Positions 6,730-46,826 of a DNA stretch of 64,000 nt are shown here, in pieces. Position 1 is the stretch's first letter; each line of letters opens with the position of its first letter. The position numbers and the translations under genes were made by a program. This DNA is from a virus (Duplodnaviria > Heunggongvirae > Uroviricota > Caudoviricetes). The notes beneath the pieces are model-generated. The model was not told the origin of the DNA. It did not search any database and saw only the letters and a program-made list of their open reading frames with translations. The stretch spans positions 236,263 to 300,262 of the IMG/VR virus record IMGVR_UViG_3300020429_000539; one strand, written 5' to 3'.

Positions 6730-7047
6730 ATGAAAAAAGGCTTTACCATTATCGAACTGTTGGTTATTATTGCGATTCTCGCATTGCTTACTGGTATTCT
6801 GCTTCCTGCTCTCGGTCAGGCCAAAAAGCGAGCCAATGAACTCAAGGCAGAGCGGCAGCGCGAGGAGCTTCTTCAGAACGAAGAGAGGAGACGAGAAGTC
6901 ATTGATGGCATTCGATACGTTATCGACCCCAAGACTGGGGTCGTCTTCGCTTTTATGCCGAATGGGAGTTCCCTTATCGTTCCCGTTGAACAACACGATG
7001 ATGTTTGGGAGCAGATTGAAAACCTGGATGAACTGGGAGATGAATAA
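6730..7047 (+). CDS. small protein with type IV prepilin N-terminal cleavage/methylation motif
   Basis: [32 protein letters not shown]. Confidence 0.85.
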
Positions 7048-10019: not shown

Positions 10020-10420
10020 TGCATTTATGCAGGTAACTAAGTTAGACTTTTATAAATAAATAATCTAATAAATAAGCCATTTTGGGCCAATTCTGACCAG
10101 CTTTTGCCAAATTCTCGACTGTCTTTGTAAGATTTTACAAAGCTGACTGGTAGTATACCACAACATATAGTGGCATACAAACTAAAGAGCCACTAATCGG
10201 TCGAGAATTACGCAAAAATGGCTAATGTCTTTTATTATAATAATATTATAAATAACTAGTGCTAGCTATTTGCCAAATTCCTGACTATTCAGCCATATTT
10301 TGCTAACATATACCTAATATATTAGCTTTTTGCAAGATTTTCGGTCGAGGATTTGAAAGAAATGGCACGAAATGGCATAATAAGCCTAACTTATTATTAG
10401 ATAAGTTTAGTTTTGTTGCC
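10020..10420. repeat. AT-rich intergenic region with direct and inverted iteron-like repeats (candidate replication origin)
   Basis: (TTT)GCCAAATTC-(T/C)-GAC units at 10086, 10102 and 10269; reversed units at 10199 and 10343; flanking inverted ATCTAATAA(A)TAAG at 10063/10390. Confidence 0.55.
10158..10173. promoter_or_regulatory. NrdR-box-like site
   Basis: CCACAACATATAGTGG matches the acaCwAtATaTwGtg consensus; only one copy seen. Confidence 0.5.
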
Positions 10421-10424
10421 ATTA

Positions 10425-10631
10425 CTAGCAGTCTAGATTATCGAAATCATTTGGGTCAGGCTCGTCAGGCACTTCCTCTGGCTTGACAAGAGAGTCCTGC
10501 CTTGGGTTTGCAAGGCGGTTCAGTGCCTCTATTGCCCTGAAGTGCCTGTTGTAATCACTCCAACACCCGCTGGGATTGGAGAGTTTGTTTACGAGGATAG
10601 CTGCCAGTATTTCTCTAGGTATGTCTGCCAT
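10425..10631 (-). CDS. small hypothetical protein
   Basis: 68-aa ORF directly preceded by the AGG-N19-GAA motif (10665-10641). Confidence 0.6.
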   Translation of the reverse strand: MADIPREILAAILVNKLSNPSGCWSDYNRHFRAIEALNRLANPRQDSLVKPEEVPDEPDPNDFDNLDC

Positions 10632-10714
10632 AATTGTAAGTTCACTCGTTTGTTGTCTAAATCCTTGTTGAGTGAAATCCCGAGTACCCCATTCTCGGTA
10701 CGCCGATTCTCTAG

Positions 10715-11300
10715 ATACATAGCGATATCAGGAATCGTCTCCCTAGATATCGCGAACTGTAAAGCGGGTTGAGACCAACAATGGTGTGTTACGAACCAAA
10801 CTGGACTGCTTGTTCATTAGCATCCGCCATCTTTGCGGAAAATGAAAGGTTCTCGCGAGAGAACAGTGCGCTATATGCTTGGACGATTCAAGCGTGGCGT
10901 CTTCCTGTCTGTGTATTCAGACTAGCCCCGTAAGAACTTCTGGCAACTCTTCATTCTTACGGTAAAGCGAAAAGAAGCGGTGACTGGCTGAAAGCTGGGC
11001 AAAACCGACTAGAAAAAACCAGGCCCAGCTCCTTGCTTCCTTTGAACAAGGAGATTTCTTCAGCCGTTCTGCGCTCTCTTTTTTGAGTTTGTGCATTCGG
11101 CTGAAGAGTTGCCCTCTGCTTAGGTGGCTTGGCCCATTCGGTAGCTTGAAAAACAAAAAACAAAAACCCGGATGGATTTGCTCTGAACTGGATCGCGAAG
11201 CGAGACAGTTGCGGAACGAAGTGACGCTTACTCAATCTGGTCATTAGAACAAAAGAACAGATGAAGAAGCGATGTCAAAAGCGTTTTGACATCTATCAGT
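10715..11300 (+). ncRNA. candidate large structured ncRNA (~600 nt)
   Basis: no credible ORF; about 11 consecutive hairpins including a GCGA tetraloop (10849-10864); GCCGAT -10-like element at 10702. Confidence 0.55.
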
Positions 11301-11394
11301 CTGAAACAAATGCTCCGACAATGGGAAGGTCTATCTGCACATAAAAGAGGAATGCTCGAACAGGTCGATGAAATATCATCTGGAGGATACCTAT

Positions 11395-11604
11395 ATGGCA
11401 GAAGAACAGTTTGACAAACAGTATGGAATCGACAGAAGAACAAAAGTCCGAGGGCTCGGAAGTAACTCTCCGGATGCAATCGATTGGGATGCGCTCATTA
11501 ACGCAGGTCTAGGACAATCGAATAGACCAAACCAGCCTGAACAGACAATTCTCGGACTGGCGAATCGGCAACAGTCTGATACCAAACAGGCACCAATAGA
11601 GTAA
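11395..11604 (+). CDS. small hypothetical protein
   Basis: GGAGG RBS then ATG 11395. Confidence 0.6.
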   Translation: MAEEQFDKQYGIDRRTKVRGLGSNSPDAIDWDALINAGLGQSNRPNQPEQTILGLANRQQSDTKQAPIE

Positions 11605-45596: not shown

Positions 45597-46826
45597 ATGG
45601 CCTTGCCTCCGAGCGCAGTAGATGCGTTGAATACAAGTCAGATGGCGATTGACGATTTGGTCAATAATAACCTTGGGCAAATACCCGAAGGTTTGTCGCC
45701 TGATGAAGTAACGGAATACATGGCAAGGCAGAGGACAATGCTTGAACAAGCGATGAATACTATCCAAGTTTTGAATAACACTCAGAATCAAGTGGGCGAA
45801 ATAGTGGAAGACGCCGAATCAGCGCTTCCAGCTATGGCTTCGTCTTACTTTAACTTGGAGAGACTAGCTCAGGGTATGGGTATTGAAACACCTTTAACAG
45901 AGGAACCTCCTGTCGATGATGCAATGGAGGTTCCTACGCAAGATACAAGCCTCGACCCGAGCCAGAGCCTCTCCTTTGGTTCGCACGTTGATTTATTCAA
46001 CTGGATGGAAGACCAAGTTCAGGCAGGGGCAGATTCTACAGCCCTTAGACAGCAGCTTATTTCTGCTGTTGGCGACAATGAAATCATAACCTCAGACGGT
46101 CTACCTATAGAACCGGCAGAGGTAATTGCTGATATTGTGCCGAAATATGTAGAAGCCTTTGGGCCTGACCCCAGTGATACTGAGATGAGGGCTCAACTAG
46201 CAGAGAGGATTTTTAGAGTTATGCCACAGCAAGATTCAGGTTCGAATGAAATTTCGGTTGTTGAGCGAACTGTGGCCGAGACCAACGCCACGATTCGTCG
46301 AGCAGCTATAGAGTATGCCGCCCACCAGAAAAAGGCAAAGGGAGAGTCTTTCAATCTCAAGAAGACTGCTCAGCACAAGGCTCTAGAGAACGTTATTGTT
46401 CATGGACCAGGTGGTAATCGTATTGATCCATTTACGGGTTATTTGATTAGCGATTGGCACGTATACGAGCGCAACAAGGGTTGGGGCATTCGTCCAGGCG
46501 ATGCTCCGTTTGTTGATTACGAAGCCATCTGGCGAGATACGGTCATGGACAAATATAGCCGTCCATTCCGTGATAAGGACGGCAACTGGGTTGGTGGTTA
46601 CATTCAGAAGCGATTCGAAGTTGATAAGTGGATTCCTGAAACAAACAATCTTCAGTTGAAGCCCGGTCAGCGTCGTAAGCCATATCTTGCCGAGTATCGT
46701 TCGCACGAGGCAAGGCTACAGGATCTTCGTTCTAAAGAAGACTCCCGTGGTCGTGAGTTTAACGATACGAGTAAGCCCTTTAACTGGAAAGAAGCCCAAA
46801 GCGCTAAAAAAAAAGTAACGGGCTGA
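45597..46826 (+). CDS. putative head protein; ends in an A9 slippery run
   Basis: FNLERLAQ, FNLKKTAQ, FNWKEAQ motifs. Confidence 0.75.
   Translation: MALPPSAVDALNTSQMAIDDLVNNNLGQIPEGLSPDEVTEYMARQRTMLEQAMNTIQVLNNTQNQVGEIVEDAESALPAMASSYFNLERLAQGMGIETPLTEEPPVDDAMEVPTQDTSLDPSQSLSFGSHVDLFNWMEDQVQAGADSTALRQQLISAVGDNEIITSDGLPIEPAEVIADIVPKYVEAFGPDPSDTEMRAQLAERIFRVMPQQDSGSNEISVVERTVAETNATIRRAAIEYAAHQKKAKGESFNLKKTAQHKALENVIVHGPGGNRIDPFTGYLISDWHVYERNKGWGIRPGDAPFVDYEAIWRDTVMDKYSRPFRDKDGNWVGGYIQKRFEVDKWIPETNNLQLKPGQRRKPYLAEYRSHEARLQDLRSKEDSRGREFNDTSKPFNWKEAQSAKKKVTG

Follow-up and report, generated by a model that had tools for sequence, protein, structure and literature searches.

The window, the whole stretch of 64,000 nucleotides analyzed here, spans positions 236263-300262 of G000, a marine phage record that is 488,051 bp long and bounded by direct terminal repeats. 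The major capsid protein of G000 is 54% identical to its Bacillus phage G counterpart, and the gene content includes 63 ARAGORN tRNA calls, a tmRNA, a TyrRS, an NAD ligase and a FliA/WhiG-like sigma factor. Two of the tRNA calls (C1:40480-40552 and 46542-46618) have a CUA anticodon, like amber suppressors, and the genes appear to use the standard code. Two tRNA-shaped genes with a long insert in the anticodon or variable region were also observed, L373:622-748 (-, 127 nt) and L369:901-1023 (+, 123 nt), possibly intron-bearing tRNAs or tRNA mimics; the former was missed by ARAGORN and lies directly behind a copy of the promoter motif described below. Many unrelated proteins share an M-x-W-Y-R/Q N-terminus (window 15185, 16742(-), 21192(-) and elsewhere), possibly a virion-targeting signal. 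At 6733-7047 of the window, a small protein has an N-terminal methylation motif of the prepilin type (PF07963), which is a weak hint at the host.

The feature under study is a predicted RNA gene of ~610 nt on the + strand (10715..11330), both ends of which are predicted. In five homologues with both anchors, the length is 515-570 nt. Its 5' domain (10715..10846, +), with hairpins at 10722-53 and 10813-46, is near-invariant in close relatives, remodelled in distant ones and aligns poorly across lineages. The variable 3' part (11114..11330, +) comprises an A-rich linker (~11148-68), a hairpin with a GC-GAA-GC loop (11186-210) and a hairpin found in close relatives only (11271-93). The 3' limit was placed with the help of a CAATG-purine anchor at 11319, which is only loosely conserved; no terminator was found on the + strand 3' of the core. 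The unit 10715..11300 delimited in the earlier note is a real structured element, of which the 3' end probably lies at ~11330 and not at 11300.

Transcription is predicted to start at ~10715, behind a putative phage promoter, GTGAA-N24/25-YCGAW (10672..10708, +). About 35 sites of this motif, with its unusually long spacer, occur genome-wide in G000, oriented with the genes: 14 and 18 sites were counted at spacings of 24-25 nt, vs. 0-5 at the 19 other spacings. Of the 20 tRNA/tmRNA clusters, six lie no more than 350 nt from a site (chance 0.0125 per cluster), and nine of the ten homologues carry a relaxed form 244-287 nt ahead of the core (chance 0.025 per search window). The related genome G038 has a spacing peak at 23-25 nt, G065 a weaker one; in G018 and G020, no peak is present. 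The downstream half resembles the sigma-28 -10 element, which fits the FliA/WhiG-like sigma factor of the phage (23258..24109, +; TIGR02479, 185.1 bits, just under the cut-off of 189.6). This factor is predicted to be the likely reader of the motif, and a predicted pair of sigma factor and promoter is now proposed for uncultured phage G-like huge phages.

Upstream of the promoter lie a small divergent gene of 68 aa (10425..10631, -; 29/37 substitutions at third positions; homologue in L108) and an AT-rich block with repeats in both orientations (10039..10420), which holds the lowest-GC 300-nt window of G000. In L002, an IS200/IS605-type element (L002:1415-2750) with a 387-aa TnpB-like ORF, assigned to this family by eye, is inserted opposite window positions 10407-10417. 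Downstream of the RNA, a small gene (11395..11604, +) encodes a 69-aa protein with the motif P-x-x-I-D-W-x-x-L; 30 of 40 substitutions are at third codon positions. It follows the RNA in 6 of 10 lineages and has 16 database matches, usually directly behind the RNA. Neither in PHROG nor in NCBIfam was a family found for this protein, and the Atlas gave no match; the protein is a candidate binding partner. The gene was not found in the carriers G033 and G038, and the RNA does not require it. In the L110-L137 group, a gene for an acidic protein precedes the promoter and ends in a terminator-like hairpin, whereas different genes follow downstream; the RNA is therefore likely to be a transcript of its own.

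Folding, coding capacity and strand

All ten stem pairs that the earlier note had spelled out with letters were recovered at their positions. The segment 10715-11300 folds at -201.8 kcal/mol on the + strand (z = -5.57, 0/100 shuffles as good); the - strand reaches z = -4.55, again with 0/100 shuffles as good. The background for the value of -5.6 is a local folding scan of the surroundings. When the 500 nt around the core were folded in nine homologues (12 shuffles each), the sense z was ≤ -2.9 in eight; the exception is L108, with -1.7, which, like L112, is slightly better folded antisense. As a separate observation, G000 has other long low-coding gaps (C1:98767-99709, 101021-101713, 160890-161801, 179217-180159, 191908-192763 and 212096-212916), none of which has an Rfam match at E < 0.05.

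The absence of a credible ORF was borne out: a hexamer model derived from G000 itself gave negative scores to the listed ORFs overlapping 10632-11394. Comparison with L002, a close relative (ligase 90% identical), revealed substitutions without codon periodicity in the element, and five frame-breaking indels of 1 or 8 nt within 11036-11335. Across the 5' part and the core, 6 substitutions were counted in 321 nt, whereas there are 18-20 per 100 in the genes on either side, where most affect third codon positions. Per 100 nt, the rate is 0.8 in 10715-10845, 2.6 in 10846-11035 and 13 in 11036-11335; the 5' domain differs by one substitution and one indel in 131 nt. The lack of periodicity, the frame-breaking indels and the low rate together indicate that this stretch does not code for protein and is under stronger constraint than its neighbors.

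The + strand had been favored on account of G-U pairs and a GNRA loop. The first argument holds: five helices in 11 sequences contain 18 G-U vs. 0 A-C cells, and the weak helix Y contains 21 vs. 6. As to the second, the GCGA tetraloop (10855-58) is not conserved. Among the homologues, UUCG/GNRA tetraloops are in small excess (8 sense, 1 antisense, 4.2 expected). Three metatranscriptomes contained 0 contigs over the whole 1.9 kb, and the genes there were equally absent, which gives no weight either way.

Core architecture, covariation and distribution

The + strand core begins with hairpin A (10849-64), strand a (RGU, 10865-67) and hairpin B, followed by a pyrimidine strand x (10901-04), hairpin C (10907-22) and a conserved UAGYY (10923-27). 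Next comes hairpin D (10928..10962, +), with 9 bp, all nine with changes on both sides. Its loop (10942-50), with an invariant UCA (10951-53) at the end, provides the 5' side of a long-range pseudoknot, the 3' strand of which is at 11105-13 (+). The most conserved part (10968..11029, +) comprises strand x' (10974-77), CGGN (10978-81), GACUG (10982-86), UGARA (10989-93), which we take to be T-loop-like, helix Z (10994-99/11024-29), NCCGACY (11004-10) and an A-rich strand (11011-21). It is predicted to form an H-type knot: in the model, CGGN would pair with NCCG, helix Z would cross this pairing, and the A-rich strand would follow. Strand x finds a Watson-Crick partner in 9/10 cognate vs. 46/90 non-cognate pairings. 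A variable hairpin E (11031-51, +) and stem F (11060-66/11098-104, +), with a U-rich loop, complete the core. The stem that had been drawn at 11057-107 is present, except that its outer TCTT/AAGA pairs compete with the long-range pairing to the loop of 10928-62.

BLAST, covariance models (R1 and R2) and motif scans yielded a family of 14 distinct core sequences among 16 aligned, from ten lineages. The nine lineages besides the window are huge phages whose capsids resemble that of Bacillus phage G; each record has a single copy, and the distant cores are 52-67% identical to that of the window. In the model-fitted core alignment, 15/15 nested pairs are double-changed, and 93% of the cells are paired vs. 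28-48% in slid controls; the 6-bp helix Z changes on both sides in 6/6 pairs, with 100% of the cells paired. A structure-blind MAFFT alignment of 13 sequences still has 82% of the cells paired over ten window-derived helices (32-48% in slid controls), even with helices A, X, C and Z counted, whose strands are misaligned in many of the rows (54-74% paired).

Against a tree-aware null, simulated on ten lineages with 3000 replicates, hairpin D (79/90 cells paired, 0/3000) and the long-range pseudoknot (53/57, 5/3000) are significant. The pseudoknot duplex is also more stable between cognate strands (-9.7 vs. -4.5 kcal/mol for non-cognate ones; 0/10000 permutations). Stem F (62/68 cells paired, 331/3000), RGU/ACY (466/3000) and CGGN/NCCG (753/3000), the latter two 98-100% paired with one covarying pair each, are not significant against this null because they vary too little despite their high pairing. 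The collection of homologues thus confirmed covariation, which is strong for hairpin D, the long-range pseudoknot and helix Z. Three further candidates found no support: helix Y (UAGYY/GACUG; 2574/3000 under the tree-aware null), a fourth pseudoknot of the stem-F loop with the A-rich linker (9005/20000), and a pairing of the 5' end of the RNA with its 3' end (6081/20000). The invariant CUGA at 11101-04 has two conserved complements, UCA 10951-53 (13/13) and CAG 11061-63 in stem F, which suggest a possible strand-exchange point.

Purifying selection, covariation, the strand-specific G-U excess and the upstream promoter motif all support the possible new large non-coding RNA of the earlier note. 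The element is very probably a functional RNA, and the family to which it belongs, one of large structured RNAs in phages, is real and new; the scaffold function discussed below is a proposal.

The distribution of the family is narrow. With model R1, 8 of 50 related records, most of which are fragments, match at E < 1e-5, with one significant match each, and all 13 matches of the best viral sequence pattern are homologues. Looser viral patterns gave nothing new (4/7 and 13/25 matches non-homologous), six of nine exact 17-mer matches are due to chance, and BLAST against annotated phages returned seven short chance matches. A pattern scan of GTDB gave 91 matches, the best with 21.8 bits under model R2, which were judged to be chance; no homologue was among them. 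Phage G, LR745208 and Tunturi_5 had no match, with only 0-4 candidates scored. In contigs from DNA runs, no form skipping the element was seen, a weak result since it concerns contigs only.

The near-complete carriers G000, G038 and G065 are tRNA-rich. In two complete relatives with capsids 79% identical, G018 and G020, no copy was detectable (1,007,943 of 1,008,921 bases searched, best 22.2 bits), and profile and descriptor searches of both were likewise empty. The tRNA calls amount to 63, 71 and 72 in the carriers vs. 29 and 36 in the non-carriers. As 65 G000 genes share this carrier/non-carrier pattern, the RNA marks a subclade, and the link with tRNA numbers, a comparison of three genomes with two, is confounded with lineage.

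Known RNA classes and a possible scaffold

The RNA could not be assigned to any known class, as the earlier note had stated: cmscan of the window and 11 homologue loci found no Rfam family covering the element. At both gathering and E-value thresholds, these 12 loci gave chance-level matches only, none over the core. No tmRNA was found at the locus by ARAGORN; that of the phage is at genome 50171-50520. Its tag, ANSNTLRMAA, is common to G000 (C1:50171-50520) and G065 (L342-L366 set), while ARAGORN found no tmRNA in G038, G018 and G020. No description of the family was encountered in the literature searched, a scope that left subscription papers and bioRxiv supplements outside, and four core motifs were in no paper's searchable text. 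Six core motifs were absent from six supplementary files of a phage RNA survey (PMC10690425), of which three other files may hold the family.

Since neither a partner enzyme nor a constant downstream gene nor any recognized catalytic signature goes with the RNA, its nearest analogues are ROOL and GOLLD. ROOL is a phage-borne RNA of ~580 nt with multistem junctions, pseudoknots and an unconserved linker, its function being given as unknown in the available text of PMC5737381 and PMC12286853. The present RNA is similar in size, is likewise found in phages and also has several pseudoknots and a linker that is not conserved. In contrast to ROOL, it is confined to one huge-phage subclade, has no homologue in the GTDB pattern scan and lies away from tRNAs: ROOL RNAs are located close to tRNA islands, but here the nearest multi-tRNA cluster is at ~70 kb, and a lone, weak ARAGORN call is 9 kb away. 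The ROOL model RF03087 gave no cmscan match in the window region or the 11 homologue loci. A ROOL family search of G000 and four carriers was empty too, a weak result in view of its lack of a positive control (0/151 Bacilli-class genomes, 0/15 records). With GOLLD, the common traits are a large phage RNA with one conserved and one variable domain, and tRNA-rich phages. GOLLD differs by its length (~800 vs. 515-610 nt) and its conserved 3' domain, which is central here, and the present RNA has its own promoter outside tRNA arrays. The GOLLD model RF02032, which covers the conserved 3' domain, did not match, with a control that was detected only below the cut-off.

ROOL and GOLLD form RNA-only cages via kissing loops that were first detected as covariation (available parts of PMC12286853 and PMC12990946), the cage contacts having first been seen as covarying tertiary pairs (PMC12286853 and PMC5737381, likewise in part). 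Their combination of junctions and pseudoknots is found here as well, with one pseudoknot statistically supported and the H-type knot partly so. By analogy, the reading tentatively preferred, with less than even confidence, is that of a free-standing ~600-nt RNA acting as a protein-free, self-assembling scaffold like ROOL and GOLLD. The host polymerase with the phage sigma factor would transcribe it together with the tRNA arrays. Copies would then oligomerize, the hairpin-D loop of one pairing with the 11105-13 strand of its neighbor, and the invariant 60-nt knot would be the working surface. CUGA 11101-04, with its partners UCA 10951-53 and CAG 11061-63, may act as a hinge for strand exchange, with a closed monomer as one state and a linked form as the other, and the assembly would serve the phage's takeover of translation during infection.

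Purifying selection, covariation, the free-standing context, the promoter class of tRNA arrays and the tRNA numbers of the carriers speak for such a scaffold. Against it, the data do not separate pairing in cis from pairing in trans, the RNA is outside tRNA islands and has no sequence likeness to ROOL or GOLLD, and the further conserved long-range contacts came out negative (9005/20000 and 6081/20000). Moreover, the tRNA correlation is confounded with lineage (three vs. two genomes), and the density of invariant nucleotides equally suits a catalytic or ligand-binding core.

Few bacterial or phage RNAs of >500 nt contain covarying knots; the classes described so far are ribozymes, core machines and, as a recent finding, RNA-only cages. 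To these, the family adds an architecture of its own with a densely packed, invariant core, and its ten divergent lineages are amenable to in vitro transcription and imaging. It provides a direct test of the generality of cage formation among large phage RNAs, a question left open in the available text of PMC12286853.

Other readings of the element

The knotted core could instead be a ribozyme or a tRNA-binding module that processes or holds phage tRNA precursors, an option that is unlikely without being negligible. It would account for the ~30 invariant positions in the nested knot and for a UGNRA segment, presumably T-loop-like, in 9 of 10 lineages, and it agrees with the promoter class common to tRNA arrays and the tRNA-rich carriers. 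Additionally, no RNase P RNA was found in G000 (RF00010, 0/1 genome; control found in 11/14), and cmscan at the loci was equally empty. The core is like RNase P RNA in being pseudoknotted, in its invariant nucleotides, its T-loop-like segment and its tRNA-rich setting, but the model is unmatched, and the knot strands, which in RNase P close the ends of the molecule, are here tens of nt apart. Models of group I/II introns, T-box and self-cleaving ribozymes are unmatched as well, there is only one clear T-loop candidate, and the RNase P of the host should suffice. In a more specific and still less likely form of this idea, the 60-nt knot would be the catalytic center of a large phage ribozyme that acts on tRNA precursors and represents a new class, unrelated to RNase P or self-splicing introns, with the CUGA exchange switching between states.

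With group II and circularly permuted group II RNAs, the size and the long-range loop pairing are shared. The defining catalytic D5, with its AGC triad and AY bulge, and D6 (as described in part of PMC8637638) were not found at the locus with RF00029: the best score, 17 bits, is elsewhere in G000, with a control of 5/14. Neither a conserved GUGYG boundary nor a reverse transcriptase of the group II, retron or DGR type (PF00078, 0/1 genome, G000; control 3/14) was found, and unlike a group II intron, the RNA is not inside a gene.

A protein decoy or tether, which would sequester a host factor (ribosomal protein, polymerase or nuclease) or partner the phage Ro60, is just as unlikely. The point of departure is a Ro60/TROVE gene encoded in 3/3 near-complete carriers, along with a CGAA at 10968-71 that loosely resembles the Y RNA motif. 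Such a gene was observed in G000 (C1:484397-485461, -; locus L264), G018, G038 and G065, not in G020; a Y RNA beside it was not found by Rfam at E < 0.05. That a phage encodes Ro60 recalls the bacterial Y RNA YrlA, but the present RNA is several times longer than Y RNAs. YrlA is characterized by the motif GNCGAAN0-1G, a distance of at most 4 kb from Ro60 and a tRNA-like domain (available text of PMC4201824). Here, the motif occurs in 2/10 homologues at one candidate segment, there is no tRNA-like domain, and Ro60 is at genome 484 kb with the RNA at 247 kb, more than 200 kb apart. The occurrence of Ro60 in the non-carrier G018 also argues against this reading.

The location next to a putative origin, claimed in the earlier note, was not upheld: the AT-rich block has no DnaA box, and in three genomes (G000, G038 and G065) the skews, also those at fourfold sites, pass the locus without a switch. 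The GC-skew minimum of G000 is at genome 94 kb. A one-directional origin would make no switch and would be compatible with these data. This bears on a further reading, that of a replication-priming transcript comparable to ColE1 RNA II, or of a signal in single-stranded DNA, in which an R-loop would expose mini-hairpins on the displaced + strand. GC-GNA-GC mini-hairpins are indeed sense-only (9 in 8/10 homologues vs. 0 antisense, 2.05 expected per strand), and an AT-rich block is upstream of the RNA in L106, L108 and L109 as in the window. According to PMC13037366, mini-hairpins of this type have greater stability in DNA and are found where phage replication is primed. On the other hand, none of the five lowest-GC windows of G038 and G065 lies beside the RNA, the skews show no switch, and the G-U pairs and UUCG/GNRA loops, with their small excess, point to RNA; priming is distinctly doubtful.

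It is very unlikely that the element is a cis-regulatory, riboswitch-like leader of the small downstream gene. The same gene follows in 6/10 lineages, pairings compete at CUGA, and the 5' domain has a weak alternative pairing with the core CGG (489/20000). However, the downstream gene is different in L109 and L111/L137, convergent in L112 and not found in two carriers, no + strand terminator follows the core, and the length would be unusual for a leader.

Even less probable is a packaging RNA forming a portal ring by loop-strand pairing, as do the phi29 pRNA rings (available text of PMC12990946): the loop-to-strand pseudoknot could in principle pair in trans, but the two complete relatives with capsids 79% identical have no detectable homologue, and the locus is away from the packaging genes.

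Chance hairpins or a decayed, functionless mobile element merit almost no credence: no transcript was seen, and the IS605-type TnpB element is ~300 nt upstream in L002, but the element is conserved above its essential neighbors, present in single copy and devoid of group II D5/D6, G000 has no reverse transcriptase, and the substitution pattern against L002 together with the covariation beyond the tree-aware null largely refutes this reading.
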